This document shows, one piece after another, positions 35,062-64,000 of a DNA stretch of 64,000 bases (the stretch's first letter is position 1; each line of letters starts with the position of its first letter). The notes below the pieces were generated by a model. It was not told where the DNA came from. It saw only the letters and a list, made by a program, of their open reading frames with translations, and did no database searches. The DNA is taken from positions 128,001-192,000 of IMG/VR virus record IMGVR_UViG_3300033076_001145; one strand, written 5' to 3'. This DNA is from a virus. Taxonomy: Duplodnaviria > Caudoviricetes. The position numbers were made by a program, and so were the translations under genes.

Positions 35062-35950
35062 ATTTAATATTTCAATTTAACATTCAGTCGTTCCTGAATT
35101 GTTTTACAAATGTAAGTAATAAATACTCTCGTGTCAAGAAAAATTTTATTTATATACTCTCACTACTCCATTTTTACCTATAATTGAGTCCTGATGTGGT
35201 TCTAATGTGAAATGTACTGTGTGACCTAAACAAGGATAGTATCTATGTTTAACACACTCTTCCCACTCTCTACGAAATTTACCATTATTACCATTAGTAT
35301 ATGTCTTCCATTTAACACATTCTTGACATTCACTATTGTAATAAACAAAATACGATGTTTTGAAGATAGTAAAGACCACTAATCCTATTATCAAAAAAGT
35401 GAATAAGATGTATAGTTCCCCGTCCTTATTCCACTTATCGTATGTTTTTCTCCAGTTACTTTTCATAATTATTTTTTTGTAGTGCGCTTTCTCATTACGC
35501 AATACCTAACTATTTTATTTTTACAGTTGACTTAATCTCTCCCGATAAATTAACACGAATATCTAAAGCGTGTAACGAATCAATAACTATATATCTTTCG
35601 CTGTCTATCTTATACACAACACCATTAGGGTACTTTGTTTGTAACATCTCTATGTCTTGAGATATGGTGGTTGTACTTGTGTCACATCCAGTTAAAAACA
35701 TCCCTATGCTTAATATCGCAATTATTCTTTTCATATTTTTTATTCTTCTTCGTCTTTGGTTAATTCAGTATACTCTAATGCAAATTGTATTAACCCATTA
35801 AGGTATTGCCACTTTTGACATCCGTTTGGGTAACTTGGGAATATCTCTTTAAGTTTTTGTTCTTGCCATTCTCTTTCAGAAGGGGTGGGCGATAGCCATT
35901 GACCATCAACATCATCTGGTTTTATGTACCAACTCATATCTTTATTTTTT

Positions 35951-38141
35951 GTAGTCAGGACAGGATTCGAACCTGTACGTTCAATGTGGCAGACTATCCT
36001 ACCTGCGACCTGTACACTGAATTAAACAGTGACACATTGAACTCACTTAGCGTCTACCAAAATTACTCATTGACCCCGTAATGGATTCGAACCACATTTA
36101 GTAATTTCCCACTTGAACGGGGTTGAAGTAATTATTCCGCCACCTGACTATTTGTTTTAATAATGATATTTTATTGTTGTTTTTAAACAACCATCAACAA
36201 CTTTAGTTGTAATTAAATGAATTACACATTTACCATTAACTTTCATTCTTCCAATTACTTCTTGAGCAATATCAAAAGGTAATGTTAAATACATATCTTC
36301 TGATTTTTGGTTAATAAATGTTTTCATACTTTTATTTTTTAGTTTAGTAGTCAGGACAGGAATTGAACCTGTAAGTAATGGAAGTTCCTCAACCTCTCCC
36401 TAAGTTCAGTGTCTTTGTGCCCTGCCCTTTGTTTTATACTTTGGCTACCATTCCGCCACCTGACTATGTTACCAGTCTTTCCTGGTCGTCACCTTGCTCC
36501 GCAGGTATGAACCCGCATTGCCCTTGGTTGGGTCTATTTGGAAAAGTCACGGTCGGCTCTGTTTCCAAATCATTTTTGTGGTTGACGGCTCAATCCGACA
36601 CGACCGATTACTCCCACATTCGTACTCAGAGAAGGACTTGAACCTTCATGTCATTTCTGACTCGGTAAATTACCTTAGCGTCTTTCCATCGGGTTTAATG
36701 CATTTCACCTCGCTTCCGCCACCTGAGCATCTTTATTTTCTAACATATTCCATCATCTCTCTCATTTTGGAAATCAATAGTTCCATTTCATCTACATTGA
36801 GGTACATACGAGAACTTTCTGAACCATCCAACTCTTTTGTTTCAACGATAATTCCATTATACGTCTCCGTTGGGTATACCTCAACTTCTTGTTCTTCTGT
36901 TGATATTGTTACTTTGTGCCAAACTTTATTCTTCATGCTATAAAATATTAAATTGTTTAAGTTCAATTACTATACCGATTATGGATATCAAGAATAAGGA
37001 TACCTTTATCATACTATCAGTGAAGGTATTGTTTGACCATCTAAAACACATCCATAGTGTGAAGATGATACAGTAAATTGTGAATATGTGTCCTAATAAT
37101 TCCATTATTGTAATTTTTTAATTATTTCAACAAATATATGGATATTTTTCTACCTTACCAAATTTATTTTTAAAAATCTAACATATTCAATTGTAATTTT
37201 GCAATCAAAGTATCTTCTTCGGGTCTTGAGTCCAACCCTAATGAGATACTTCTTCCGTGACAAGAACAAGTTGGGTTACCATCTTTGTTTACACCGAAGG
37301 ATATGAATCCAGCACTAATAGGTTTCCAATCACTGAAATCTGAATGTTGTATCATTTCAGGAAACACGATGATTTCTCTATTTCGTGTTATGATGTATTT
37401 TTGTTTTAAGTCCATACGACAAAGATAATACTAATTTTTTAAATAGACAATTTTTTTTGTAGTCAGGACAGGACTCGAACCTGTATGAGGTAACTGTTGT
37501 GACTTCATGATGCGGAGCAGTGTTATTTCCTTACGCTTACTCTATTACTCACTCGCAATTCGCTATGCCAATTTGCCACCTGACTATTTTTATATTTTAA
37601 TCTTTAATCAATGCTTTGATTAGTTGGGTCGCTATCATCATCACTATTACGGAGAAAAATATTTCCCTCCGTCATAACCACCCAAATCACAATCAATGTA
37701 AAAACAATAAGTCCTATCATAATATCAATTTTAATTTATTTTTATAGTCAGGACAGGATTCGAACCTGTAACAGAGTATTCTTAGTTGCGAACAACGACT
37801 TTCTCCTTTCTGACATTGTAAGCCTTATACCAATGATATCAATAGCGTCTACCATTCCGCCACCTGACTATTTTGTTTTTACAATAAATAATGCCGTATT
37901 AACATACCTAATATGAATGATAATATCGTCATTAAAATAAACATTGTTTTAGATATTTCCTTATGTTTCATATTTCTAATTTTAGTAGTCAGGACAGGAA
38001 TCGAACCTGTATAGGTGTCAGTCATAAACTGATTGCTTCTACTGTTATAGAGTTCTTTTGCTCCACCGAACCTAAACATCTTACGTTCACTACCTCACCA
38101 GGTTTCCGATGTTACGTCTAACCAATTCCGCTACCTGACTA
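35951..38141 (-). repeat. tRNA-scaffold elements, cluster 1 (6 copies)
   Basis: 35951-36150, 36347-36466, 36622-36728 (variant), 37459-37586, 37744-37870, 37985-38141; AGTCAGG-TGGCGGAAT...ACAGGTTCGAATCCTGT-CCTGACT with unrelated middles. Confidence 0.85.
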
Positions 38142-38374
38142 TTTTGTTAAAACTTAAATGGGTCCCAACTAGCAATACTCCATTCAACCATTAGTTCTTT
38201 TCTAACCTGTTTTTTCTTTTTTCTCGGCAAGTTACTAGACTCTCGGTATTTCTTAATAATCTTTTCCTTCCATATTTTACTTGTGTTTGAAAAGGTGTGC
38301 ATTTCGTTAATTGCCATTTGGTAAAATAACTCACCACCTCTACCGAATAAACTATCCATAATTTTTATTTTTTA

Positions 38375-38914
38375 TTAATCATTAAAAAGATTTACTAAAT
38401 AACTAAACATTTCATAATAAGGATGTGTGTTACTATCATCCCAACCCATATTTACGATAAAGTCATCATTCTCCTTCTTATACTTCTCAAACATATGACC
38501 ACCTGTCATTTTTGAGTATTGGACATTGGCAATACGGTCACACAACTTAACGAACACCGCTCCGTGAGTATTTCTGATACCTTCATAATACTTGTCGTTC
38601 GCTCTTTCCTTACGGTTCTTACCTTTCTCGTTGGTAAGTGCGTAGATGATATCAGCGGCAACTATACCTAATTCTTCCTTTACATCGTTGTAAGATACAC
38701 GAGTATCCTCAATCAAATCGTGACCCCATGCTCCAAGTAAGATATCCTCACCTGTCAATCCTGTTCCGTCATTACAAATATCAACAACCAAACTTCCAAA
38801 TTGTTTTGCAACATTCACAACCATTCTCAAATGAAACTCATAGGGAAGATATGTGTCGTACATATGATTTGTACTCTTATGTTGTTCTAATACCCAATTA
38901 ATCTTGTTTTCCAT
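38375..38914 (-). CDS. HD-domain hydrolase (RelA/SpoT hydrolase, Mesh1-like)
   Basis: PY.FHL..V, GHDLIEDT, ALT, VKLCDRIAN. Confidence 0.8.
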   Translation of the reverse strand: MENKINWVLEQHKSTNHMYDTYLPYEFHLRMVVNVAKQFGSLVVDICNDGTGLTGEDILLGAWGHDLIEDTRVSYNDVKEELGIVAADIIYALTNEKGKNRKERANDKYYEGIRNTHGAVFVKLCDRIANVQYSKMTGGHMFEKYKKENDDFIVNMGWDDSNTHPYYEMFSYLVNLFND

Positions 38915-38926
38915 AGGACAAAGATA

Positions 38927-39295
38927 CTACAATTTCTCAAAGTAAAAAAATATTGGTGACTTTTTTTCAATCAATAACCCAAAATCTTTTGCTAACCTAT
39001 AATTGGGGGTGTCCCTTTCCAATCTGTCAAGTGATGTCTCAACAACCTTTCTAAACATTTCAAGAGAATAGGTTGATTTCCACTTATTACATCTAGCACA
39101 AGATGGATTTAAGTTTTCAATGTCGTGGGAACCTTTATTAAGACCAGCTCGTTTGGCTTCACTTTCAGTTAAAGTATGCCAATGTGGTTCAATGTGGTCC
39201 ACTTGCATTTCTTTGTAGGTAATCTCCTTACCACAATAAGCACAATGTCCCTCACACTTTTGATAAACTTGTTCCCTGATTTCTTTTTTCATCAA
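38927..39295 (-). CDS. HNH endonuclease
   Basis: HCAYCG, MQVDHI, NLNPSCARCN. Confidence 0.85.
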   Translation of the reverse strand: MMKKEIREQVYQKCEGHCAYCGKEITYKEMQVDHIEPHWHTLTESEAKRAGLNKGSHDIENLNPSCARCNKWKSTYSLEMFRKVVETSLDRLERDTPNYRLAKDFGLLIEKKSPIFFYFEKL

Positions 39296-40018
39296 TTAGA
39301 TATCCAACACTCTTTTCTTGTAATAGTCATCAAAACCATCTAACATTTCGGTGATTGTCTTAGTGTCATCTCTTTTGATTACCTCATCAATCAATCCAAA
39401 CTCTTTTGCTTCGTCTGAGTTATACCATCTGTCACGAGTGGAGAATTCTAATACCTCATCAAATGTTTTTCCACAGTTCTCGGCCAACATTTTAAATAAA
39501 ATGTAGTTATACTTCTCACCTTCCATTTGGTCAATACGAGTATCTTGGATATTACCATGAGTTCCATGACTTACTTGGTGGGTCATAACCTTTGAATAGA
39601 CAAGTGACGACCTCTTACCTTTGGTCCCTGAAGATAATAATACCGAACCCATTGAAGCGCACATCCCGATATTGGTTGTTACAACATCTGATTTAATGTA
39701 GTTCATTAAATCAACAATACCAAGTCCGCACAACACCGAACCACCAGGTGAGTTAATATATAAAGTAATGTCTTTTTGTTCAACAGAATCCAAAAACAAC
39801 ATTTGAGCTTGGACAATATCTGACATTCGTTGATTAACCGCCCCTGACACCCATAAGATACGCTCTCTCATCAACCTCGAGAAGATATCAATCTGTGTTG
39901 CTCTCATTTCTCTTTCCTCCAACACATATGGTGTTAATGAGTTTTCAAACGCATCAAGGTTCATAGATGAGATACCCTCACTTAATGCAAACTTTCTAAA
40001 TTCTTTTCCGTAATTCAT
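39296..40018 (-). CDS. clpP: ATP-dependent Clp protease proteolytic subunit
   Basis: DIFSRL..ERI, YINSPGG, CASMGS, MTHQ, RDRW, FGLIDEV. Confidence 0.95.
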   Translation of the reverse strand: MNYGKEFRKFALSEGISSMNLDAFENSLTPYVLEEREMRATQIDIFSRLMRERILWVSGAVNQRMSDIVQAQMLFLDSVEQKDITLYINSPGGSVLCGLGIVDLMNYIKSDVVTTNIGMCASMGSVLLSSGTKGKRSSLVYSKVMTHQVSHGTHGNIQDTRIDQMEGEKYNYILFKMLAENCGKTFDEVLEFSTRDRWYNSDEAKEFGLIDEVIKRDDTKTITEMLDGFDDYYKKRVLDI

Positions 40019-40443
40019 TTTTTATTTTAATTGTTTTATACCTCTACAAGTCTCTCTGTGATTAGTCGTGTCCCAAAGTTTGGGATTAACCATATGACAG
40101 GTATGTTTTCTACCTGTTCTTTCAACAAATTCTCGTAATTTTTTATTATGGTTGTTTTCAACCTTCCAAGGACATTCCTTACAACAAGACATAGTTTAAG
40201 ACTCTTGGGTTAGTAATCTGTTGTATCTATTTTCATCAATCGCAATTCTCATTCTTGACTCGGTTGAACGGTATAAATCCGAACCAACACCACCTAATTG
40301 TTTCTCATACATATTAAGGTAATTTCTAACTAACTTACGACAAGCAATGTCTTGCATTGGGTGAGTACAAGAATCAATTACACTTATAACCCACAACATA
40401 GTTTCATACCATCCATTCATAGTTTTATGTATTAAAAAGTTTG

Positions 40444-40519
40444 TGAAGAAGACGGGAATCGAACCTCGTGGCACAAGGGATTTCTGTCCCTCTGCTCTAC
40501 CGACTGAGCTACTTCTTCA
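40444..40519 (-). tRNA. Atypical tRNA (Phe-like, irregular anticodon loop)
   Basis: Good acceptor, D and T arms; GAGGGA-CAGAAA-TCCCTT gives a non-7-nt loop. Confidence 0.55.
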
Positions 40520-40583
40520 TTTAAAAAGGTAAGTCCGACTTCCCTATCCGTGTGGTGTTTCACGAGTCGGACTTGTTTTTGTT

Positions 40584-41057
40584 AGATTCACCAATATAGT
40601 ATTTCCTCGGATATGTCCCAAGAGATTGGGACCATAGTAACCGTCCACCGAGGACCTATACTCTCACACTCCGTCCTGTCCCTACTCACTTAATCAAATT
40701 AGTCATAAGCTTCTCGGTCGAGGCGTTCAGTGTTACCCTCAAGACATCTTCACCCTACCACCATAGTTACTTGGTTAGCCTCACTCGGAAGATGAGTGTG
40801 TATCGTAAGATTGTCTAGTTTTCTTACGACTTGTGGATTTCAACACGACTACTTAAAGCCCCTAACCCTTTTAATCCATAACGAGGGTATCTAATTCATT
40901 GTTCCCTATCATACTTGGTTGAACTTCCCCAAACCAATTAACACCGATTAAGTAGTGCTATATGTATTTCACGTTCTGTGTAGCCTCCCCCATAGCCTTG
41001 GAGCCTTCAAGCCAGGTTCACACTGTCCAACCGCAGATAAACGGTATTGTGGGGTCT
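40584..41057 (-). ncRNA. Candidate ~475-nt structured RNA
   Basis: No ORF, raised GC, terminal helix and nested long hairpins. Confidence 0.6.
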
Positions 41058-41697
41058 TCTTTACAAATTAGATTACTCCGACTTCGGACATTGCTTCATC
41101 AGCATATTCCATGATGATGTCAGATTCAACTAATTCAGTCGCTTCAGTGAAAACTTCTCTCAATTTGTCCTCATCAACGTAAGTGTTAATTTCACGACCA
41201 TCAACATCAAAAGATACTACTTCATCTGAATCAAGGTTTGAGAATGCTTCGTCAAAGATAAACTGATTAACTTTGTTGGTGTATTCAATCAAGAAGTCCT
41301 CAAGTTGTTGTCTTGTGAAGACAATTTCACCTTCCTCAACACCAGCGTCGGATTTAACTTCATTTAATTGTGATTGGATTTCGTTAATACGCTCAATCAA
41401 TTCGTTGTTTTGTTTTTTGTTTTTCTTACTCATAATATTCATTTTTGGTGTTTTCATTTCTTTTACAAATATACAACGAATTTTTTACTTGGACAAGGTG
41501 TAGATGTTATTTTCATCTAAAATAATTTCACCCTTATCACCAATCTGAATACCCAAACCTTCCATAACAATTTGGAAATTTGTTTCACTCATAACATTAG
41601 CCTTAACTAATTTTTTGTATCCTAAAATAAAATCCATCAATTCAGGTTCAGAAATAAATCCTTTTTCAATAACTGGTATCATAGTTTAAAATTTTTG

Positions 41698-41769
41698 AGG
41701 TCGGAGTTGGATTCGAACCAACGTAAGAGCTTTTGCAGAGCTCCACTTAAACCACTCAGACATCCGACC
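41698..41769 (-). tRNA. tRNA-Cys(GCA)
   Basis: GAGCT-CT-GCA-AA-AGCTC; U73. Confidence 0.9.
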
Positions 41770-41838
41770 TTGTTTGTGAATACAAATATATAACATATAT
41801 CTATTCAAAATCAAATTTTTTTCTTAATATTTACTATT

Positions 41839-42498
41839 ATGGATATTGAATTTTTTTTAAAACAGTTTTTAGAACATAATTCTGAAATAGAATGTGATAA
41901 TGGACTTAAATTAGTATGGAATGGCGAATTTGAGACCACAAAATATAAAGATAATGAATATGAAATTCCAGTCTATAAAGTATCTAATCCTAACAATTCA
42001 CCTTACACAAGGAGCGCCTTAGAATATTATGTTGAGAGTTCCCTTTACACATTTAGAAAAATGTTACCTATATTGGAAAACTCTATACCTAGCGTATTTT
42101 TATATATAGTAGATTCTTTAGATTTCTACATATCCCCTAAAACTGAAATGAGATTAACAAAATGTTTAGGTTCAATTAGTATTGAGGATGAGTCGTTTTC
42201 TATTGATGGTCAGAATGTTGTAATTTCAGGTAGTTTCACCGGTGATTATGAAATGGATTTAGATGATGTAACAGTAATTTGTATTTGCGATTTTCAAATT
42301 GATTCCGTAACCGTTGACGGAGAAGACATCTACTACGACGAGGACGAATTTGATAGAATAAAAGACGAAATATATGACTATGATTCTGATTGGTTTGACA
42401 TCCCCACTTGGGGTTGTTTATCACAATTATATAACTCAAATAATTTTGTCAGCAAAGATGACATGGGGTGGAACACAGGTGTTCGTCTTATTATCTAA
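41839..42498 (+). CDS. Acidic hypothetical protein
   Basis: 219-aa ORF. Confidence 0.6.
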   Translation: MDIEFFLKQFLEHNSEIECDNGLKLVWNGEFETTKYKDNEYEIPVYKVSNPNNSPYTRSALEYYVESSLYTFRKMLPILENSIPSVFLYIVDSLDFYISPKTEMRLTKCLGSISIEDESFSIDGQNVVISGSFTGDYEMDLDDVTVICICDFQIDSVTVDGEDIYYDEDEFDRIKDEIYDYDSDWFDIPTWGCLSQLYNSNNFVSKDDMGWNTGVRLII

Positions 42499-44065
42499 TT
42501 AAAACAATGTGTCCTTTTTGGATGTGATTGAATCCTTTATCATCCTTATATGTCATAATCCAATTATAAACTCCATTTGGACAATAATATCCCGAACCAT
42601 CAGTTCCGTTCCAAGTTTGAGTAATTGATTTAATTTCATAAATAATCATCCCGTCTTTATTGAAGATTTTCATATTTGGTTCATATAAAGATTCCCCAAC
42701 AATTTTAAATGCATCATTATGTCCATCTCCATTTGGTGTGAATGATATTGGAACAAACAATCTATGACAAGCCTCAACATCAATTCTTAAAAACCCAACC
42801 TCACTCTTACAACCAATGGTGTCAGTTCCATAAACATCAATAACATGACTCATTGTCGAATCATACCAATTCTGATACAACTCAAAATCAGTGTCCGATT
42901 GTAACTCCCCATCAACATGCCAAGTGTATTCAACCCCAACTTCATCATTAGCATAATAGAATTGCTCAGGAGAATTTTGACATAAATCAATATTCAATAA
43001 TGTTGTGTTTATTATTGGAGCTGTATATAATTCTCTAACAAATACTTCAACTGAATCTGCAACAGGACATCCATGAATATTGACAAAATATGTTGGGTAA
43101 TATGTTCCGGGTTCAAACGCTGTGAACACATCCCCAACCAAATTCTCACCCGACCAAAATCCACCTGATGGAATTGCAACCAATTGTGTTGTATCACCCA
43201 AACAAATTCCAGTTCTTGGTTGATTAAAAACTATTAATGTGTCCGAAACATTGATTGTGGTATCTACCACATCTCCGATACATCCATCAACAGTTGTTTC
43301 AATAACCGATATAACATAATCACCCGGTACTCCACCCCAATCAATATTAATAATATTTGTTCCATCTTCAGTTAATGTTCCACCACCTGAAAGGTTCCAA
43401 TCATATGTTGAGCCAGGAGTATTCACAACAGAATATGTATCAGATAATCCAACACATACCGTATCCATCGGAACATCAATGGGTGAAGTATCAACATCTC
43501 CTCCAACAACCGTTCCATTGAATACTTGGAATGGTCCGTCGAAACATGCCTCGTTTCCCCAACTTCCCATCGTTCCATCCGCATATGGCGTAACCTCAAT
43601 TAATAAAGATAAGGGGTCACATTCATCCGTTACTTGTAATAACACACAAAATGTCCATTGGCAATTCGTTCCAAAGTCACCCCAATCATTCCCAGGATTC
43701 CCATCAATAGGTCCTGTCGGTCCCTCATAAAAATAACCCGGTCCAACAGTTAAAGTTCCTGAATTGTTAGTAACACTTTCCATCCATAACCATCCTTGTG
43801 GTGGTGTCGCACCTCCACAATCATCAGGTCCTGATATAGGTGTATAAGATACCCAACCAGGTCCCAAGTTAATACTGAAACCTTCAAGCCAATTAGCCCC
43901 AAAACCTGTATCCCAACCATTCAAAGTGTAACACATAGTTACAACAGTTCCTGGTTCGTAATTACCATTAACAGGGGCAGGATTTAATGTGAAAGATGGA
44001 ACCCCAGCACATTGTGCAAGTATAAGATTGGGGATTAACAATAGGAGGAATAGGATTTGTCTCAT
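42491..44065 (-). CDS. Secreted Ig-like repeat protein with T9SS type B (gliding-motility-associated) CTD
   Basis: Signal peptide; LFVPISFTPNGDGHNDAF...IFNKDG...WNG...GVYNW...KGHIVLIR. Confidence 0.85.
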   Translation of the reverse strand: MRQILFLLLLIPNLILAQCAGVPSFTLNPAPVNGNYEPGTVVTMCYTLNGWDTGFGANWLEGFSINLGPGWVSYTPISGPDDCGGATPPQGWLWMESVTNNSGTLTVGPGYFYEGPTGPIDGNPGNDWGDFGTNCQWTFCVLLQVTDECDPLSLLIEVTPYADGTMGSWGNEACFDGPFQVFNGTVVGGDVDTSPIDVPMDTVCVGLSDTYSVVNTPGSTYDWNLSGGGTLTEDGTNIINIDWGGVPGDYVISVIETTVDGCIGDVVDTTINVSDTLIVFNQPRTGICLGDTTQLVAIPSGGFWSGENLVGDVFTAFEPGTYYPTYFVNIHGCPVADSVEVFVRELYTAPIINTTLLNIDLCQNSPEQFYYANDEVGVEYTWHVDGELQSDTDFELYQNWYDSTMSHVIDVYGTDTIGCKSEVGFLRIDVEACHRLFVPISFTPNGDGHNDAFKIVGESLYEPNMKIFNKDGMIIYEIKSITQTWNGTDGSGYYCPNGVYNWIMTYKDDKGFNHIQKGHIVLIR

Positions 44066-44109
44066 GCTGATAAATATCTGATAAGACATATTGGAAAAAT
44101 AAATAGTTG

Positions 44110-44182
44110 TACCCCCGGAGAGACTCGAACTCCCACGTCTCTAAATCCGTATTTTAGTGTTTTTCCATTAAACTACAGGGGC
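44110..44182 (-). tRNA. tRNA-Arg(ACG)
   Basis: CTAAA-AT-ACG-GA-TTTAG. Confidence 0.8.
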
Positions 44183-44188
44183 AAAAAG

Positions 44189-44276
44189 CGGAGAGCGGTG
44201 GAATCGAACCACGCACAACTTAATGAGATACTGTTTAGCAAACAGTCGGGGACACCATTTCCCTCCTTCACTCTCC
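44189..44276 (-). tRNA. tRNA-Ser(GCT)
   Basis: ACTGT-TT-GCT-AA-ACAGT; long variable region; G73. Confidence 0.85.
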
Positions 44277-44278
44277 AA

Positions 44279-44356
44279 TGGTGTGTCTAGCGGGATTCGA
44301 ACCCGCGATGACCTGAGCCACAATCAGGCGACTTAAACCTCTTGTCAATAGACACC
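44279..44356 (-). tRNA. tRNA-His(GTG)
   Basis: CCTGA-TT-GTG-GC-TCAGG; G-1; encoded CCA. Confidence 0.88.
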
Positions 44357-44832
44357 GTGTAGTAGTCAGGACAGGATTCGAACCTGTAAAATAACATTAA
44401 TACCTGCACTTTGGAACAGCGGCATGGATAACCAAGAACTGTCTGTTTAATGTTAAGTGTCTAACCACTTTCACCACCTGACTATGTTTTTTATTTTACA
44501 AAAATTTCAGTTAATGGTAAAGAAGCAAATTTATACCCGTAAACTTCATTAGGTAGTGTTCCATCTAAACACTCAACAATATAGTTTGGAATTAAACCAG
44601 TTGAACTTTTACCTACAATTTTTCCTTCAAAATGAGTCTCACCAATTCTAACATTCACTAATGTTCCATCAGTTAAATCCTGTGATTTTACAATTTCTTC
44701 AAATGTTTTATTCATAATTTTTATTTTTTTTTGCAGTCAGAACAGGATTCGAACCTGTAAATTAGAAACCCTCTTCTAATTCCAAACCTCCGTGAATGGA
44801 GCGTTTACCAATTACGCCACCTGACTATATTT

Positions 44833-44922
44833 GAGGATGAGAAGTCCTCTGTGTTGTGAGCATACCGCATAATGCTTGTTCATACCCCATACATTAACTT
44901 CCTTTCTCAAAGGAACAACACA
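44833..44922 (-). ncRNA. Repeated structured RNA family B (kissing-loop), copy 1
   Basis: TGTGTTG-TTCC(TTGAGAAA)GGAA...CAACACA-GAGGA(CTTCTCA)TCCTC. Confidence 0.7.
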
Positions 44923-45362
44923 TTTGTAGTCAGGACAGGATTCGAACCTGACCCTCAAGTATCCGTCTTTACCGTTAGGAATTACCCCACTGACTCGCGT
45001 AAAACCATTTTACTACCTGACTGTATGTGGGCTACCCTCCTTTCGTCGCAACCGCCCACCCGTTGTGATTTCAGATTGTAGTCAGGACAGGATTCGAACC
45101 TGTATGAACTTGCTCCGCATGGCTAGGACTAGGGTTCACTATCTAATATCCATTTATAGCTGGCGTCTACCAATTCCGCCACCTGACTATATTCGTGGTA
45201 AGTCACGACCTACATATCCCTGACATTTAGCTAGCATTTCAGCTCAGGTATTTGTTACACTGTATTTGAAGTCAGGACAGGATTCGAACCTGTATAAACC
45301 AGTTGTTGCTGATTGCTTCCCCATTGATTACGTCTAACCAATTCCGCCACCTGACTATATTT

Positions 45363-45446
45363 GAGGATGAGAAGTCCTCTATGTTGTGAGACTCGAACAC
45401 TTAGTCTCAGTTCTTTCTAATATTCCTTTCTCAAGGGAACAACACA
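45363..45446 (-). ncRNA. Family B, copy 2
   Basis: Same conserved blocks, different internal hairpin. Confidence 0.7.
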
Positions 45447-45759
45447 ATATTTTATTGTCAAACATTTGGGGTGAAACGCTCTGCCGCCTCCTTGTAGATA
45501 GACATTTGAGTCATCATCAAGTGAGCATAAACATTACCACCAACTATATCATTAACCATTTTACATTTCTCTCTAACAATACCTTCTGTACGGACAATAC
45601 CTTGTGGTCCATCTTCTTTCATTTCTCTAACCGCTTGAGCCAATTCCAAGTCAGTCATATCAGAGAATACTTTTGTTACTGTGTTTTCCATAGTTTGTTA
45701 TTTTGATTTGACAAATCTACGGCAAAAATCCTATCAAACAAAATTTATTTTAAGAAAAG

Positions 45760-45837
45760 TACCCCCTGAGAGACTCGAACTCTCACCCTAAGACATCGTT
45801 CTAAGCGATGCGCGTCTGCCTATTCCGCCAAGGGGGT
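45760..45837 (-). tRNA. tRNA-Leu(TAG)
   Basis: CATCG-CT-TAG-AA-CGATG. Confidence 0.88.
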
Positions 45838-45844
45838 AAATAAG

Positions 45845-45931
45845 CGGAAGACGTAGGACTCGAACCTACACATCAGTTTCCCGATACCGGTTTTCAAGAC
45901 CGGGGCGATACCAATTACGCTTTAGCCTTCC
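45845..45931 (-). tRNA. tRNA-Ser(TGA)
   Basis: CCGGT-CT-TGA-AA-ACCGG; long variable arm. Confidence 0.9.
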
Positions 45932-47162
45932 AAGTTCCCCACCCTGAGATTCCAAGTGAGTAGTCATATCGGTTTTTCTCTTTCCAAAAACCTGCTGGGC
46001 ATCCCCGTTGAAAAAAGTCACACTACGTAGGAGGAGTTGTGCTGTCTCCTTTATCCCCACGATGTCCCACTCGCGCCGTAGACATTCTGCGGAATCATTC
46101 TTTAGGTCTTGATTCGAAGACCGTTGAGTATCTCTTACTCATTATCGTTATAAATCCATTGATTGATGTGTTGGGTCACTATCATCATCTTTTTTTCTTA
46201 AAAAATGTTACCTTCCGTTATTATCACCCACGTACCCAATAATATAAACAATAGAATCCCAATCATACTTTTTGTTTTTAAAAATTTGCAGTCAGGACAG
46301 GATTCGAACCTGTTATAAGAGAGGTCACTTACCGCTGATGGGACATATACCATCACCCTCTGTACTGCCGTACCACGTTGCGTCTACCATTCCGCCACCT
46401 GACTATGGTGGAGGGATTGCTTTTTTTATAGAAGAGCTCGCCCACCTCAGAACTTCTTTTGTAGTCAGGACAGGGTTCGAACCTGTAATTTGAATATAGA
46501 GGATATAGTTTTCATACTAGTTCTATAACATGATACTCCATTTAATCGTCTACCATTCCGCCACCTGACTATTTTGTATGTTATGGAGGGTTACCCATAA
46601 AGTTTACTAACACCCTACTTTCGTTTGTCCTGTTAGTACCACTCGGCCTCTCGTAGCCACTACTTCATACATTTTGTAGTCAGGACAGGATTCGAACCTG
46701 TAATACTCCGAAGAGCTTTCTCATATAGGCTATTTCACTATACTTTTGATATCGTATATCCAATTCCGATACCTGACTATTTAGTGTTATTATTGAGTTT
46801 ACTCCCTTATAAATTATAAGTGTTTGCAACCACCTATAGCATTCCTCATTTATTCCGTTCTTAGCTGTGAGTCTAATAACATTTGTAGTCAGGACAGGAT
46901 TTGAACCTGCAATCTCTCCCACATACTGTAAGAGCGCATTACCAATTAGCCACCTGACTATATTCGGGACGGGATTAAGCATCTCCCATATGTCCCTACT
47001 TTTTTCCTATCGTTTGAGTTTTGGGTTTAGGTCTGAAAACTCCTTCGGTAAGGAAAAAGACCGCAGTTTCTGGAAACTTACAAAACCCCAACCTTGCACC
47101 CTTTGTTACTTTAACGTCTCAACAATAGCTCTCACTTGGACGAGTGTCAAAAAAGACGGCTT

Positions 47163-47313
47163 GCTGAATAAAAAGGATTTGAACCTTAATCCTGTGTCCC
47201 CTTTCACCGTCCTCATGCGGACTGTCGTTACTCCGTTCTACTGTGCTCCTTTACACCATATTCAATCGGTAGTTTCGAACCTACCAGGTACCAAGTTAAT
47301 TACTCTTGGACTT
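47163..47313 (-). ncRNA. Family C, copy 2
   Basis: Homologous to 34828-34978. Confidence 0.7.
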
Positions 47314-47413
47314 TGTAGTCAGAACAGGATTCGAACCTATACGTTAGCTTTACATTTCGTTGACTAACCGCACCTTGAAGCGAGCGTCTTCCATTCCGCC
47401 ACCTGACTATGCC

Positions 47414-47489
47414 GAGGATGAGAAGTCCTCTGTGTTGTGTCATAACTGGATGACCTACCAACTAATTCCTTTCTCAAGGGAACAACACA
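47414..47489 (-). ncRNA. Family B, copy 3
   Basis: Same conserved blocks. Confidence 0.7.
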
Positions 47490-47775
47490 ATATTGTTGAT
47501 AGTGTTGGGATACCCGTCTCGTCCCAATCTTAACAGCTTTGTTGAAGTTTTACAAGGCCTTGGCTGAGGGTGGTGATTCCCGATTCCACTCTGGATTGTC
47601 GACATCCGTTAAGTGGGGAAATCCACTATCAAATATTTTTAAAGTTACTCAACCCCTCACGTCCTTTTACTCTTGGGGTTAAAGGTCTTGCGGACCACCA
47701 TAACGGGTTTATCATACTAGGAAGACGCTCAGTATATAAACCTTGCACCTCTCTGAAGTAACTATTTAATTATCT

Positions 47776-47800
47776 GTTTCAAAGAACTTCTACAAATGTA
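47776..47800 (-). promoter_or_regulatory. TAnnTTTG promoter element followed by boxA-like GTTCTTTGAAAC
   Basis: + strand caaatgta 47793-47800 and gtttcaaagaac 47776-47787. Confidence 0.6.
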
Positions 47801-47931
47801 TGGTGTTTTTTTCAATTCACCAAATTTTATTTGTTAATTTTTGAAGTGTGATTTAATCTTCATCCAAACTATGTCGGGGTAATTAAAAACCCACCAAAAA
47901 AACCAATATATCTTTTTCATAATTTTAATTT

Positions 47932-48020
47932 GTGGATACATTGGGACTCGAACCCAAACCAACCAACGGGGCCATCAGTCATACGGTTACCCCAAATTTC
48001 CACCTTCCATAAGTGTACCC
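47932..48020 (-). ncRNA. tRNA-like element, different scaffold
   Basis: GGGTACA/TGTATCC acceptor + TTGGGTTCGAGTCCCAA T-arm; no canonical anticodon arm. Confidence 0.5.
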
Positions 48021-48165
48021 ATATTTGTAGTCAGGACAGGATTCGAACCTGTGATAGTCTCCATCAGCACATTGATTAAAGCAGAGACTCCGTTGTTTGA
48101 GGTTCATGGCGGAACCTATTTCAATGTTTCGGTGCGTGTTTCCATCTCGCCACCTGACTATATTT

Positions 48166-48252
48166 GACCACTGGTGGGATTCGAACCCCAAAGACCTTAC
48201 GTATCGGTCACCCTCCTGTTCGTCCTATCCTGTAGTAACTTTCAACAGTGGT
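48166..48252 (-). ncRNA. tRNA-like element, different scaffold
   Basis: ACCACTG/CAGTGGT acceptor + GGGTTCGAATCCC T-arm. Confidence 0.5.
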
Positions 48253-49442
48253 TTTTAATCAATAGGGGGATTACGAATCCCTAGAACAGGTACTCCTATT
48301 GAAGTTTTTGTAGTCAGGACAGGATTTGATACCTGTATAATTTCATCTCAAGTCTAAGACTCGGAATTACTGTAACTGCCCAGCGCCTGACTATATTAAC
48401 TATGAGAGCACGTTGTTCTTCGCATCTCTTTGGTATTTCCCGTGGTTAGTTAGACCAGATAGAGCGTTTCCCTATCAGAAGTTCCATATAGGTAATCAAC
48501 CTACTTCTCATCGTATTGGACATACTATCTGATGATTAGTCAGAACGTGTAGTCAGGAGAGGATTCGAACCCCCAACGATGCAACCTTTTTATCGGATGT
48601 GATGCCGTTTCCACATTACGCATTACCTGACTAATTATTTTACAAATATACTAATTTTATTTCATAATCCCCTTCCCTTTCAGTTAAAAACTTTTTTGCC
48701 TCGTCAATGGTTGGGTGGGCTCTATACGGAAACCTTGGTAGTAATCCACTTTTTGGTCCGTATATATGAACAGATTTACTACAACTAAAAGTTACAATTT
48801 TTTCTTTATTTGTCATATCTTATCCATTTTTTACCTCTTCATCCCATTCTGATATAACAAACTTTAAATCCATCCATCCACCTTCTTCATCTTCTCTATA
48901 TTCAGCTAGAAATCCACCAGTTGATACGGTTGTCTTTTCCTCAATCGCCATTTTCAAAAGTCGTCTTGCTTCACTTCTTAATTCATATTTTTCAGGAACC
49001 TCAAGACTACCATTCCTATTTGCCCATTTCCAATCAAGGAATACCATTACCTTATGAACTTGGTCAAAGTCAAAGCTATCCATTATGTTGTCAAGAGCGT
49101 CTTGTTGTTTTGGTGTCATATTCTTATCGTTTTGTGATTACAAATATATGGCAAGATTTCTATCAGTCCAAATATTATTTTGATTTTTCTTCAGATACAG
49201 TATCAATAATGGTCCATATTGTAAAAGTTAATCCAGCGACTACCCACAACCAATGTCTGAAACCCCAATGCCAACTTGGACCGTGAGTATCATGAGAATA
49301 TAAACATCCTTCTCTAATCACATTATTATTGATGTATTCAACTTTACCACCATTACATTGCCAATCACCAAATAATTCGTGAGCATATTCTGGTACAAAT
49401 GACATACAGAATATGACGGCAAACATTATTAAAATTTTTAAT

Positions 49443-51251: not shown

Positions 51252-51647
51252 TTATCCCGCCAAAACTTCTTTCACAATTTCTGAAACAATTTTGTTGTCA
51301 GCCTGTCCCTTGAAGTTCTTATTGAACTCACCCATAATCTGCCCAACATTCAACAAACCATTTAACTTATAGTTTGAAACGATTTCACGGATTCTGTCAG
51401 GTCCCATCTGAGCTGGCAAATATGGTTTAATATATTCCAACTCCTTTAATGAGTCAGGTGTGTTTGTTTGAGTCAAAGATTTTTCCATCTTCCTCAATAT
51501 CGCAACAACAACCTCATCCGTTGCTGAACCACTGCGACCTTCTTCGTTTTGGATTTCTCCCTTAACAACCCCCAAAAAGTTTTTCTTTTCAGTTTCCTTG
51601 TTTTTAAATGCGGACATAAAGTCGGCATTGATTCTTTCTTTTAACAT
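51252..51647 (-). CDS. yqeY: GatB/YqeY domain protein
   Basis: LKERI..D...AFK, YLPAQM, GQIMG, GQADNKIVS..VKEVL. Confidence 0.8.
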   Translation of the reverse strand: MLKERINADFMSAFKNKETEKKNFLGVVKGEIQNEEGRSGSATDEVVVAILRKMEKSLTQTNTPDSLKELEYIKPYLPAQMGPDRIREIVSNYKLNGLLNVGQIMGEFNKNFKGQADNKIVSEIVKEVLAG

Positions 51648-51669
51648 AGTTTTATTTATTAAAGTTTAG

Positions 51670-51740
51670 TTGTCCCTGATGGATTCGAACCACCATTATC
51701 TGAATCAAAATCAGATGTCCTGCCCTTAGACGAAGGGACA
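51670..51740 (-). tRNA. tRNA-Gln(TTG)
   Basis: TCTGA-TT-TTG-AT-TCAGA. Confidence 0.88.
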
Positions 51741-51801
51741 AAATGGAGTGTAGTGGGGCTGCAGTCCCCTGAGGCACCTACACAAGTTATTCCTCTTTTT
51801 G

Positions 51802-51873
51802 CGGTCTATGAGGGAATCGAACCCTCATCCTCCGATAGACAGTCGGATATCGTATCCTTTGGACCAATAGACC
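51802..51873 (-). tRNA. tRNA-Asp(GTC)
   Basis: TCCGA-CT-GTC-TA-TCGGA. Confidence 0.88.
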
Positions 51874-51880
51874 GTATTTG

Positions 51881-51953
51881 AGCAGTGAAATGGAATCGAA
51901 CCATCGTTTCTGAATTGGTAATCCATCGTAATAAACCTCTATACGACCACTGC
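51881..51953 (-). tRNA. tRNA-Gly(ACC), rare anticodon
   Basis: TGGA-TT-ACC-AA-TTCA; G1C2 acceptor, U73; D-arm like the neighbouring Gly(TCC). Confidence 0.7.
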
Positions 51954-52031
51954 AGTTTGGGTGGAATCAGAGGCCTTCTGTCCACCGAGACCTCGTAGTT
52001 GACTTTCGTCAGAGCTTACCGAGACACTAGG

Positions 52032-52104
52032 AGCGGGTTGGGGTAATCGAAACCCCATCTTCACTTTGGAAGAGTGACATAATGAGCCGTTATACGAAAC
52101 CCGC
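52032..52104 (-). tRNA. tRNA-Gly(TCC)
   Basis: TCACT-CT-TCC-AA-AGTGA. Confidence 0.88.
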
Positions 52105-52186
52105 TTATAAAAAAACCCACTTCGTCAGATTAACGGACTGACTGCCATTTCGGAGGTGGGGTTTGTCCTGTTAATTCAGGACCTCG

Positions 52187-52259
52187 TGGAACGGGAGAGA
52201 ATCGAACTCTCATAAAACGATTTTCAGTCGTTCACCTTGACCACGTTGGTAACCGTTCC
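52187..52259 (-). tRNA. tRNA-Phe(GAA)
   Basis: AACGA-CT-GAA-AA-TCGTT. Confidence 0.88.
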
Positions 52260-52294
52260 ATATTTCGTTTGCAAATATACAAACTTTTTCGTTG

Positions 52295-52366
52295 TCCCGG
52301 TAAAAAGAATTGAACTTTTGACAACTTGGATATGAATCAAGTACTCTACCACTGAGTTATACCGGG
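52295..52366 (-). tRNA. tRNA-Met(CAT), weak
   Basis: CTTGA-TT-CAT-AT-CCAAG; AT-rich T stem. Confidence 0.65.
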
Positions 52367-52373
52367 TTAAAAG

Positions 52374-52447
52374 TAGCCCCTGTGTGAATCGAACACACGA
52401 CCTATTGTTTGTAAGACAATCGCCCTAAACCACTGAGCCAAGGGGCT
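52374..52447 (-). tRNA. tRNA-Val(TAC)
   Basis: ATTGT-CT-TAC-AA-ACAAT. Confidence 0.88.
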
Positions 52448-52533
52448 ATTTTAGTGGAAAATAATCTCCACCCATTTTTTCCGTGAAGAGTCGTTTTCCA
52501 CCCATTTTTCACAAGTCCCACCCATTTTTTTCG

Positions 52534-52607
52534 TACTTCCGATTGGAATTGAACCAATGACCTTGACTGTATAAGAGTCCCGCTCTATACCCCTGAGCTA
52601 CGGAAGC
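52534..52607 (-). tRNA. tRNA-Ile(TAT)
   Basis: GACT-CT-TAT-AC-AGTC. Confidence 0.8.
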
Positions 52608-52908
52608 ATTTGTGGAATTACTTCCACTGATTTTTTCTGTTGTATTTCCAAGTTCTATACTCTCGTACTTTAGCCCAAGGAATTTTCTTGTTGGGGTTTT
52701 TATAACCTCTCTTATGGTATGGATAGAAATTTAATCCTTCATCCCAATAAAGTGGATACCATTCGTTTAGAGAAATTAGGTGGTAATCCCGACCACATTC
52801 TGATTGTTTGAGCTTTGCTCTGTTTCTGTTTTTTGACATAGTTATTAGGGTTTACCTAATAGCCATAATAGTGCCCTGGTCTCATAATTTTTGGTTTTTA
52901 AAGTTTAG

Positions 52909-52981
52909 TGGACACGGTGGGGCTCGAACCCAATCTTCCGCATTGCAAGTGCAGCGCTTTAGCCATTTAAGCTACCGGCCC
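52909..52981 (-). tRNA. tRNA-Ala(TGC)
   Basis: CTGCA-CT-TGC-AA-TGCGG; G3:U70. Confidence 0.85.
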
Positions 52982-52992
52982 ATTTTAAATTG

Positions 52993-53064
52993 TCGAAAAT
53001 GTACGAATCGAACGTCTCCTGAATGCCCCAAACATCCCATGCATACCATTACACCTCATTCTCG
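52993..53064 (-). tRNA. tRNA-Pro(TGG)
   Basis: GGATG-TT-TGG-GG-CATTC. Confidence 0.8.
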
Positions 53065-53071
53065 AATTAAG

Positions 53072-53146
53072 TTCTCACGGCTGGACTCGAACCAGCGACC
53101 GTTTGTGTATCAGACAAAAACTCTAAACCACCTGAGCTACGTGAGA
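53072..53146 (-). tRNA. tRNA-Ile(GAT)
   Basis: TTTGT-CT-GAT-AC-ACAAA. Confidence 0.88.
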
Positions 53147-53153
53147 ATGTTAG

Positions 53154-53224
53154 AGCCCCTACTCGGAATCGAACCAAGAACAATTGATTACAAATCAATC
53201 GTTATACCTTTTAACTATAGAGGC
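53154..53224 (-). tRNA. tRNA-Thr(TGT)
   Basis: ATTGA-TT-TGT-AA-TCAAT. Confidence 0.88.
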
Positions 53225-53230
53225 TTGTTG

Positions 53231-53315
53231 CACGCCAGGAAGGATTCGAACCCTCATAGAACATAATAGTTCACGGTTTTGGAGACCGTTGCCTAAACCA
53301 TTCGGCCACTGACGT
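53231..53315 (-). tRNA. tRNA-Trp(CCA) with long variable arm
   Basis: ACGGT-CT-CCA-AA-ACCGT; extra arm GAAC-TATTAT-GTTC. Confidence 0.85.
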
Positions 53316-54036
53316 GTATTATTTTTTCAATTATTTTATCAATATTGTTTTTAACTTCGTAATCGCTAAATCTTAAAATCTTCCACCCCATTTGGGATAA
53401 AATTCTATCTCTTTCAATATCAATTTTTTTAACATTTTTTAAATTATGTGTAGAACCATCAATCTCAATGTTAATTTTTAAATCAACGAATGCGAAATCT
53501 AATGAATATCTTAAAATTGGGTATTCCTGCGTCCACCCATCAATACCATTCTTAATTAACGACTCTCTAAATAACCTTTCAGGATAACTTTCTTTTGATG
53601 AGTGATTTAATAAGTAAGGTATTTTACCTGGATTTTCATCTAAGTATTTTTTCCTAGATTTTGATATTTTCAATTTCTGTTCATCACTCATTTTCCTACC
53701 CTTTCCGATTTTAGATAATTTTTCTTTCCTGTCGTTTAATTTAGGATTTAAATAACAATTAACCTTATGACCTCCGAGAGACCTTCCATCATCATATTCA
53801 ACACCACAAAAACTACAGATATGTTTTTTAATCACTTTATTTTTAATTTCAAGTGATTTAGTTCTTGGTTTTCGTTTATGAACTGACAGATGACCTTTTA
53901 ATTTTGAGATATTCTCAAATGGTCCCTTACCACATTCGTGACAATAAAAATCACCAACATTATGAACACTCATATGTCCAGATAATTGATTTGGTTTTTC
54001 AAATTCTTTTTCGCAGATATTACATTTATACTCCAT
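53293..54036 (-). CDS. C2H2-type Zn-finger repeats + DUF559/Vsr-like endonuclease (probable homing endonuclease) inside the tRNA operon
   Basis: CNIC..H..H repeats; MSDEQKLKIS NUMOD3-like; YSLDFA, IEIDG..H, RD..L...GWKILRF. Confidence 0.8.
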   Translation of the reverse strand: MEYKCNICEKEFEKPNQLSGHMSVHNVGDFYCHECGKGPFENISKLKGHLSVHKRKPRTKSLEIKNKVIKKHICSFCGVEYDDGRSLGGHKVNCYLNPKLNDRKEKLSKIGKGRKMSDEQKLKISKSRKKYLDENPGKIPYLLNHSSKESYPERLFRESLIKNGIDGWTQEYPILRYSLDFAFVDLKINIEIDGSTHNLKNVKKIDIERDRILSQMGWKILRFSDYEVKNNIDKIIEKIIHVSGRMV

Positions 54037-54087
54037 AATTATAAATATTTCGTAGGTCATTTTTTTAAACCACCTAACTAAAAAAAG

Positions 54088-54175
54088 TGACCCCGGTGGG
54101 ACTCGAACCCACAACGGCTATACAGCTTCCCTACTGATTAAAAGTCAGTTGCGCTACCAATTGCGCCACGAGGTC
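54088..54175 (-). tRNA. tRNA-Lys(TTT) with long variable region
   Basis: ACTGA-CT-TTT-AA-TCAGT; ~20-nt variable region containing GCT-GTAT-AGC. Confidence 0.85.
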
Positions 54176-54186
54176 ATTAAATTTTG

Positions 54187-54258
54187 CGGTGATGGGGAAT
54201 TTCGAAATCCCGACCCTCTGATTAACAGTCAGATGCTCTGCCTCTGAGCTACATCACC
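54187..54258 (-). tRNA. tRNA-Asn(GTT)
   Basis: TCTGA-CT-GTT-AA-TCAGA. Confidence 0.88.
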
Positions 54259-54270
54259 ATTTTTCCCAAT

Positions 54271-54282
54271 ATGTCAAAGAAC
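54271..54282 (-). promoter_or_regulatory. boxA-like antitermination site GTTCTTTGACAT
   Basis: Resembles rrn boxA; directly before the first tRNA of the operon. Confidence 0.6.
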
Positions 54283-54296
54283 CTTTTTGTAACACC

Positions 54297-54332
54297 AAAA
54301 AAAAACCCCGAACTTTTTTGTAGTTCAGGGTT
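54297..54332 (-). terminator. Intrinsic terminator/attenuator in the tRNA operon leader
   Basis: AACCCTGAACT-loop-AGTTCGGGGTT followed by a U-run. Confidence 0.8.
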
Positions 54333-54357
54333 CCCTTTTTTATATTTGATGATACGC

Positions 54358-54471
54358 TTACATCTCATTAAGAACCCTTACTACGCTAAAATCTTGTCCC
54401 TTAATCGCAGACCATGTTTGGCCTACGGTTGTCGGTAGATTATTTACGCTATGTATTGAGTTCTGTTTCAT
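54358..54471 (-). CDS. Putative 37-aa leader peptide MKQNSIHSVNNLPTTVGQTWSAIKGQDFSVVRVLNEM
   Basis: Short ORF between promoter and terminator; last codons are complementary to the terminator 5' arm. Confidence 0.6.
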   Translation of the reverse strand: MKQNSIHSVNNLPTTVGQTWSAIKGQDFSVVRVLNEM

Positions 54472-54502
54472 TGTCTTATTTATTAAATATGTAATTGTTT
54501 GA

Positions 54503-54533
54503 CAAAAGTATAACTATTTTTCAGTTATGTCAA
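54503..54533 (-). promoter_or_regulatory. Promoter TTGACA-N17-TACTTTTG
   Basis: Bacteroidota -7 consensus TAnnTTTG; same spacing as the three promoters at 63.76-64.0 kb. Confidence 0.7.
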
Positions 54534-62821: not shown

Positions 62822-63656
62822 ATAAACGAAGCCTGAGATTACAGCTTTGATTGAGAACCTTTGGAAGGATTATTGTTTCCCTTCGTATCCACTTCCTTTT
62901 GAGAAGTATTTCTCAGTGACGGTCTTTTAAGTTTACCACTCTTTGAGGTTTGAATTACTCTATCAGTACTCAACTCTTTCCGAGGTTGCCACCCCAGTTC
63001 GTCCTTGCGGGATTAAAGGTCTTTCGTAACAATACACATTGACTTGGGGTCTTTGTGTGCAATGAACGGCTCATTACTATGTAGTCACCTTTCACTCAAA
63101 CCTGATGGACACTTTTCCTTAATGTATTTTAATTAATTGGATAATTTAAATTCCATTTAGTTTTGTGTCGTAGATGTGTCAGAGTAGTGGTCCACCGTAA
63201 GCTCCGTTTCCTTTTGAGAAACGAAATACTAAACTACTCCGTGAAGTGTCCCCACCTCCATATTCCAAGATTACTTCATAAAGAGACCTTGGTAGGTCTG
63301 ACTTTAGGGGTAGTAGCGACACCACTCGTTCTCCACCTTACCTTTCGGTTTTAAGTCCTCTATCATATTGGGACCCGCAATAGTGTGATTGGATAATCAC
63401 ATTTCTTACAGAGTTCCTATGGGTTATTCTTATTACTCTTCCGAGTTCAACCTGACAATCTACTTTGCCAGGTCACCCTACCATTTTCCCTACGAAGTTA
63501 TCCTCGGTACCGAAGGTTTGGTGATATCCCACTTGTGTACTTGAGTTCAATTTCCCTTACGGGATTTCAAACCGCAGTCTCCTCAACACGGGGGAGACCA
63601 CTTTATCCTACTTTCGTAGTTTATTTAAGGACCATACACGGCCCATTATCGTTTAT
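62822..63656 (-). ncRNA. Candidate giant (~835 nt) structured RNA, GOLLD-like in size and context
   Basis: No credible ORF; terminal helix ATAAACGA/TCGTTTAT; many GNRA-capped hairpins on the minus strand; promoters and boxA upstream, terminator downstream. Confidence 0.7.
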
Positions 63657-63720
63657 CAGATTAAATGTCTCATAATCAACCCGAAGGTCTCATAATCAAC
63701 TACTGAATGGATAATCTATT

Positions 63721-64000
63721 TTTTCAAAGAACGTTTCGGACATTTCCGAATTGTTTTACAAATTTACGACATTTATTTCTATTTGTCAAGTTATTTGTTA
63801 ACTTTTTTTTGAGATTTGGAAACTTTAATCGTTTTACCACTCTGTGAACCTTAATCTCAAATCCTTTACAAACTTACAACATCTTTTCCAATTTGTCAAA
63901 CTTTTTGTAAAGTTTTTTTTAGTTTTGACTACCGAGTATCTTTCATTTCCTATAAGTGTCAAATCTTTTACAAACTTAAAGCAAATATTCGGTAGTGTCA
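63721..64000 (-). promoter_or_regulatory. Three tandem TTGACA-N17-TAnnTTTG promoters plus boxA
   Basis: -7 boxes at 63759-63766, 63869-63876, 63971-63978, each with (T)TGACA 17 nt upstream; GTTCTTTGAAAA at 63721-63732. Confidence 0.7.

Follow-up and report, generated by a model that had tools for sequence, protein, structure and literature searches.

E. coli pheST is controlled by attenuation at the pheM leader. Paralogues of hisS are controlled by a His-leader (PMC2965389) and, in both systems as in the phage leader described here, attenuation sets, or would set, the supply of charged tRNA rather than that of the amino acid. The leaders of amino-acid operons (trpL, hisL, pheL, thrL and the multivalent ilv leaders; PMC11857589, PMC3082878) resemble the phage leader in having a short uORF with alternative antiterminator and terminator helices, besides a protector helix that is putative in the phage, in the course, predicted for the phage, from a stall to read-through, and in codons that mirror what the operon supplies. 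In toiL (PMC12121999), too, a stall at many positions of the uORF opens expression, and the T-box (RF00230) converts tRNA status into a choice between terminator and antiterminator. The nearest functional parallel is the trn operon (L-arrays) of Anabaena, a silent tRNA array that is induced by translational stress (PMC8421152) and is accompanied, as the phage array probably is, by a gene for a homing-type nuclease. The reason for tRNA genes in phages has been debated for 50 years, with codon compensation set against replacement of destroyed host tRNAs, and the action of host anticodon nucleases has been put forward in print to explain their presence (PMC10264068).

The window, by which we mean the whole 64,000-nt stretch of DNA that was analysed, comes from a virus record of 208,634 nt that is 71% complete and has a G+C content of about 33%. 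The promoter consensus TTG-N19/21-TAnnTTTG, which we take to be the mark of a Bacteroidota host, is found throughout this phage genome, and the source appears to be a giant uncultured phage of a Bacteroidota-type bacterial host. The window contains 28 tRNA genes (default settings), one GOLLD RNA and one freshwater-1 RNA. The GOLLD RNA (62830-64000, minus strand) is preceded by three tandem promoters and a boxA, and the stretch at about 35950-48650 (minus strand) holds many tRNA-like elements in which the acceptor, D and T arms are constant and the middle varies. The minus strand carries the leader region, which is flanked by a SiaB-like kinase gene on one side and the main tRNA array on the other (Table 1); a synteny search through the SiaB-like gene upstream of the leader gave no matches.

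Table 1. Positions in the window of the leader elements and of the tRNA array behind them
Feature	Positions	Strand	Remarks
Predicted promoter, Bacteroidota-type housekeeping (TTG-N20-TAnnTTTG)	54503-54533	-	TTG 54533-54531, 20 nt, TAnnTTTG 54510-54503
AT-rich motif before start codon	54482-54490	-	conserved in 28/29 homologues
Leader ORF (proposed sensor), 37 codons	54358-54471	-	conserved as 114-nt ORF
Segment 1 (proposed protector), codons 3-5	54458-54464	-	7 bp with segment 2, invariant 16/16
Inner hairpin, codons 15-22, nested in 1:2 fold	54406-54427	-	9 pairs, kept mostly via one-sided changes
Array-amino-acid stretch, codons 13-28	54388-54435	-	15/16 residues, 11/13 kinds
Segment 2 (predicted antiterminator 5' strand), codons 30-34	54370-54384	-	pairing computation
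Post-stop spacer word, small hairpin over stop codon	54341-54355	-	common to three dissimilar peptide families
Segment 3 (terminator 5' arm and predicted antiterminator 3' strand)	54320-54335	-	pairing computation
Predicted intrinsic terminator	54297-54332	-	11-bp stem, 7-nt loop, T9
boxA, putative Nus-factor loading site, 3' of terminator	54267-54282	-	12-mer match to rRNA spacer
15 tRNA genes	51669-54258	-	Asn, Lys, Trp, Thr, Ile(GAU), Pro, Ala, Ile(UAU), Val, Met/CAU, Phe, Gly(UCC), Gly(ACC), Asp, Gln
tRNA-Pro(UGG), low-scoring 15th gene	52992-53064	-	same place as tRNA-Pro in most homologous arrays

The promoter, ORF, terminator and boxA were all found where the original prediction, made from the sequence of the window, had placed them. 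The terminator hairpin (54332-54306) is followed by nine T's that extend to 54297, and its folding z-score is -4.7. A sigma-70 scan picked up neither the promoter nor the terminator because its patterns are unfit for an 11-bp stem with an A-rich loop and for a promoter that is not of the E. coli type. The boxA lies 15 nt past the T tail, and its 12-mer (54282-54271) is identical to one in the 16S-23S spacer just before the 23S rRNA of a Chitinophagaceae genome (L049). It is the boxA word of a Bacteroidota rRNA spacer and, as in rrn operons, stands before a long non-coding transcript; by sequence it is of the rrn type and, by analogy with rrn boxA/Nus antitermination (PMC13753749), would bind NusB-S10 and support antitermination. 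Motifs similar to the AT-rich motif upstream of the start codon precede 66 of 244 ORFs in the genome, compared with 22 in shuffles, and this motif is possibly a second (phage) promoter or a 5' UTR signal.

Homologous loci were searched for with the post-stop spacer and the T tail, a combination that selects neither the ORF nor the antiterminator; the conservation of the spacer itself is a product of its use as the search word. Including the window, there are 29 distinct locus groups of this leader family, all of them ahead of tRNAs. The promoter is kept upstream of 28 of the 29, the remaining one being truncated, and no promoter motif was found between the terminator and the first tRNA in any of them. 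In the cultured phages searched the leader was absent, tRNA-Asn being the sole match, and a two-motif DNA pattern search gave no matches. A second leader family (L176, L207, L218, L231, L252, L266) shares the post-stop spacer word, differs in peptide, antiterminator and terminator, and runs directly into tRNA without the boxA word.

The leader ORF is under coding constraint. The 21 distinct coding sequences among the 29 loci are all 114 nt long, with a fixed start and stop and without an internal stop or indel, and indels at the homologous loci are confined to regions outside the ORF. Variable columns number 11, 13 and 20 at the three codon positions, pN/pS is 0.34 (0.28 over codons 2-27), and the alternative frames are closed in 20/21 and 21/21 of the coding sequences. 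Pfam and NCBIfam searches of the peptide gave no match. Codon choice in the leader is unusual, as a CAI-like score places it among the lowest 0.8% of windows of the genome, and no codon run is longer than two. The use of 18 of the 20 amino acids, which had been put forward as a sign of a sensor, was counted correctly; it is not significant when compared with 37-mers of the phage proteome (P 0.10), and we dropped it as evidence.

The original prediction also described a 9-bp pairing between the end of the ORF and the terminator. This pairing is real and longer than stated: 54384-54370 and 54335-54320 form 14 bp interrupted by a 1x2 internal loop, and the resulting antiterminator has a folding energy of -18.3 kcal/mol (intramolecular fold), compared with -14.8 kcal/mol for the terminator without its U tail. 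Codons 3-5 can also pair with segment 2, and the resulting set of alternatives, 1:2, 2:3 and 3:4, is that of trp-type leaders. The 7-bp 1:2 helix is weak and is invariant, with no two-sided change, in 16/16 family members; its invariance is compatible with function yet is not proof by covariation. The 1:2 pairing is somewhat stronger for own than for swapped segments (-7.8 vs -6.0 kcal/mol, p 1.4e-4, again for a weak helix). The inner hairpin nested in the 1:2 fold is a possible pause or folding element. The 2:3 duplex both persists and covaries among the relatives. Its energy lies between -16.9 and -23.6 kcal/mol in all 27 variants of the family. Its distal part repeats the terminator 3' arm in most members, and the window lineage, L285 and L258/L270/L278 have rebuilt this part from different letters; in L285 and L258/L270/L278 matching changes in the terminator loop accompany the rebuilt helix.

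We modelled the switch by forcing a 27-nt ribosome footprint to be unpaired while the terminator 3' arm was still inside the polymerase. In this folding model the probability of the antiterminator is about 1 for a ribosome with P-site codons 1-27 and 0 for codons 28-35, both for the window and for the mean of 21 variants. The antiterminator is predicted to exclude the terminator, and a ribosome close to the stop codon is predicted to cover the antiterminator. In the ribosome-free case the 1:2 fold is predicted to form first (P 0.87-1.0 before segment 3 is made), and the window model then gives the antiterminator as the intermediate equilibrium and the terminator as the final one, so that the models are ambiguous about this state. 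Once the full hairpin is out, the equilibrium model of the window favours the terminator with a ribosome placed at any of codons 12-27: segment 1 then pairs again around the ribosome, which is sterically doubtful. This return to the terminator at equilibrium implies that the switch would be kinetic.

It is very probable, in our view, that the leader is a multivalent ribosome-controlled attenuator in which slow decoding induces the tRNA genes. The original prediction of a ribosome-controlled attenuator is supported by the conserved ORF, the covarying pairing and the lack of a promoter motif downstream. The in silico basis for this reading is the anatomy, the conservation of the ORF, the covarying alternative pairing, the match between leader codons and array, and the position-dependent switch; what we infer is that the ORF is translated, that transcription pauses and is coupled to translation in the host, that Nus factors load, and that a shortage of tRNA is what naturally triggers the switch. 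Host RNA polymerase would initiate at the promoter and a ribosome would translate the leader. When decoding is fast, the ribosome would move beyond codon 28 and cover segment 2, the 3:4 terminator would fold, and transcription would stop before the tRNAs. When a charged tRNA is scarce, the ribosome would be held within codons 1-27, and 2:3 would pair before the terminator 3' arm emerges. The polymerase that reads through would load Nus factors at boxA and then transcribe the 15 tRNA genes, and the newly made tRNAs would close the operon again (negative feedback). If no ribosome is present, segment 1 would sequester segment 2 and termination would be favored. Because boxA lies 15 nt behind the T tail, it should be unable to override the attenuator; after read-through it might, again by analogy with PMC13753749, protect the long non-coding transcript.

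The array behind the terminator yields 14 tRNAs at default thresholds, and the fifteenth predicted originally is the weak tRNA-Pro(UGG), seen at a relaxed threshold only. With this gene counted, the array serves 13 amino acids. Two of the tRNAs have unusual anticodons: tRNA-Ile(UAU) (52533-52607), which does not need lysidine, and tRNA-Gly(ACC) (51880-51953). Between tRNA-Lys and tRNA-Trp is an ORF for a zinc-finger and DUF559 nuclease (53293-54060, minus strand), probably a homing-type element, and a YqeY-like (GatB-related) gene (51252-51647, minus strand) lies immediately 3' of the last array tRNA. The array also contains three conserved structured RNAs that are not tRNAs (52105-52185, 51954-52029 and 51741-51800, minus strand), which lack an Rfam match and whose stems change on both sides in homologues; the first of these ends with a terminator-like stem and a T7 tail.

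The leaders hold the amino acids that their own arrays serve. Across 17 families with at least 5 tRNAs each, and leaving Met out of the count, 151/154 array amino acids are present in the family's own leader compared with 100/169 non-array amino acids (p 1e-5), and the leaders of narrow arrays are strongly enriched in the amino acids of those arrays. The window leader covers 13/13 array amino acids (P 0.018), and these make up 27 of 36 of its residues. In codons 13-28 they account for nearly every residue (Table 1), although this stretch was picked after inspection (P ~0.02, scan-corrected). Under standard wobble rules the leader offers a codon to each of the 15 array tRNAs. The match has full coverage and is not exclusive, and we rejected an exact match at this locus: the array lacks tRNAs for 10/37 leader residues (Ser, Leu, His, Arg, Glu), and the compositional excess is small (+0.08, rank 4 of 17). 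Within the family, an Ala codon accompanies tRNA-Ala (6/7 vs 2/17, at three different positions, in counts that are not independent of descent) and ATA accompanies tRNA-Ile(UAU) (4/5 vs 1/19, not phylogenetically independent and on a poorly resolved tree); co-tracking of leader and array within the family was not significant for Met and Cys.

The tRNAs for the Ser, Leu, His, Arg and Glu codons of the leader sit in clusters 4-17 kb downstream. No typical terminator was found between the array and position 34341 except the inner hairpin at 52160-52109, plus two weak ones, so a Nus-modified polymerase might reach these downstream clusters, which also have their own predicted promoters.

Since the leader has at least one codon for each array amino acid, loss of any such tRNA could open the operon. 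The control codons are not in runs, and one codon per amino acid is a weak stall signal unless depletion is deep. A stalled ribosome would report a missing charged tRNA whatever the cause, and a drug that acts on the ribosome would flip the same switch. Induction of tRNA genes helps against tRNA loss or limitation and not against a shortage of amino acids, which favours tRNA depletion as the trigger. A special case of the attenuator reading is that the switch evolved as an alarm against host defences: host tRNAs would be cleaved by anticodon nucleases, toxins or Cas13, and the operon would replace them. We regard this as a real possibility that falls somewhat short of probable. Extra tRNA would cure tRNA loss and not amino-acid starvation, phage tRNAs have been proposed to act against tRNA-depleting defences (PMC10264068), and the leaders match their tRNA sets. 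The phage also encodes an RNA ligase of the T4 Rnl1 type (10790-11338, minus strand), a possible tRNA repair enzyme, although RtcB, a CCA enzyme and TilS were not found in the 71% complete record. However, the sequence names no trigger, and heavy phage translation or general tRNA decay would act alike.

The leader could instead be a general sensor of translation speed, responding to starvation, ribosome drugs, hibernation or nascent-peptide arrest, with the identity of its codons secondary. The 18 amino acids and many rare codons of the window leader would suit such a sensor, multipurpose uORFs such as toiL are known (PMC12121999), and a stall at any of codons 1-27 suffices in the model. However, the leaders track their own arrays across the 17 families, which a generic sensor would not need, and 20 dissimilar peptides speak against an arrest motif. 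We therefore consider this explanation unlikely. Of the general sensor of the original prediction, the sensing of stalls is retained and the generality needs qualifying: since the leaders contain the amino acids of their own arrays, the array-covering multivalent attenuator is the better description.

The leader belongs to a wider class of loci. A pattern of terminator tail and boxA gave 44 viral loci, chosen without regard to ORFs, and class counts were made after dereplication over all fetched viral loci. An ORF of 22-38 codons is present at 64/66 sites that have a terminator, boxA and tRNA, compared with 28/278 other terminators and 5.3/66 in shuffles, and the two exceptions appear to have ORFs that start with GTG. 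These ORFs form 20 peptide families with <40% identity between them, some perhaps distantly related. The final 39 nt of an ORF pair with the terminator arm of the same locus at -16.4 kcal/mol and with swapped arms at -9.3 kcal/mol (permutation p 1e-5), and the pairing peaks 5-20 nt before the stop codon; the ends of ordinary long genes pair with their own terminators at -8.0 kcal/mol (p 6e-9). This covariation of ORF end and terminator across dissimilar sequences is the strongest evidence for a switch. It also bears on the idea that the ORF is a small gene in its own right, closed by a terminator of its own, with the tRNAs transcribed through constitutive leak-through or from an unseen promoter. 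The class ORFs end 23-36 nt before the terminator stem, a distance that we rejected as stand-alone evidence because ordinary genes of the phage, which end about 10-45 nt before similar terminators, overlap this range; moreover, in an unselected scan for boxA only, 30/36 tRNA-linked sites had no terminator directly in front. However, the complementarity is absent from ordinary gene ends, the geometry is fixed despite dissimilar peptide families, leader codons match the array, and no promoter motif lies downstream, all of which make an independent gene very unlikely. Least likely of all is an RNA-only switch (T-box-like or a protein-bound leader RNA) with an incidental ORF, for although the fold of the leader is better than that of shuffles (z -3.3) and its nucleotides are themselves constrained, it has no T-box or riboswitch match, its pN/pS is 0.34, indels are restricted to regions outside the ORF, and the amino-acid match to the array is frame-specific.

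The attenuator reading applies to some tRNA arrays and not to others. In the same boxA scan 6/36 tRNA-linked sites had a terminator directly in front, and not all phage tRNA arrays would thus be gated by such leaders. In this phage genome the leader is the sole one of its kind, and the second tRNA/ncRNA cluster starts (47786-47823, minus strand) with a promoter and boxA and no terminator or attenuator, so that the phage has one gated and one ungated array. Three contigs (L025, L037, L039) each carry two tandem attenuator-array cassettes with a separate leader for each. The layout of leader, terminator, boxA and tRNAs is also present in four bacterial-bin contigs (L090, L047, L088, L099), possibly mobile elements, whose bins carry the labels Paceibacterota, Anaerolinea, Muribaculaceae and Deltaproteobacteria; the leader of L090 (L090:100-3500) is rich in Asp, Glu, Val, Leu and Ala and lies ahead of tRNAs for the same amino acids. 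We tentatively suggest, while leaning slightly against it, that these are widespread, undescribed sensors of the tRNA pool, in which phages and some bacterial-bin elements write the inventory of an array into a leader ORF and destruction of any listed tRNA by host immunity switches on the replacements. If so, a leader would be a genetic read-out of the tRNAs that a host attacks.

An array opened only by slow reading of its own codons points to replacement on demand, and the question of why phages carry tRNAs becomes testable with a 260-nt reporter: which defences or stresses open the array, and via which codons. The leader would also be useful as a naturally occurring sensor of the tRNA supply in vivo. 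In the literature covered, which leaves out most subscription journals, we found no published attenuator that controls tRNA genes. No Rfam leader model matched the phage leader at cut-off (Thr_leader scored 23.5 against a cut-off of 55), and neither the T-box model (RF00230) nor Bacteroid-trp (RF01692) matched it, although the RF01692 leader-peptide family has matches in B. thetaiotaomicron; the presence of such a family in the host phylum speaks for the attenuator reading. The T-box differs from the proposed attenuator in that it binds tRNA directly, without a ribosome, and toiL differs in using translational control with Rho termination, in responding to antibiotics and in having a toxin-antitoxin target. 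In Anabaena the L-arrays are controlled by a protein repressor, TrcR (PMC10272220), and the word attenuation is absent from PMC8421152. Unlike the boxA of rrn operons, that of the phage would be gated by an upstream attenuator and serves tRNA genes. The pheST and hisS systems each control a synthetase for one amino acid, whereas the phage leader would control tRNA genes. Similarly, the leaders of amino-acid operons regulate biosynthesis or synthetase genes and have runs of codons for 1-3 amino acids, whereas the phage leader would regulate tRNAs, has the codons of 13 amino acids about once each, and is followed by a boxA behind its terminator. The phage leader would thus carry attenuation beyond amino-acid operons, to tRNA genes and to a sensor design of many codons.
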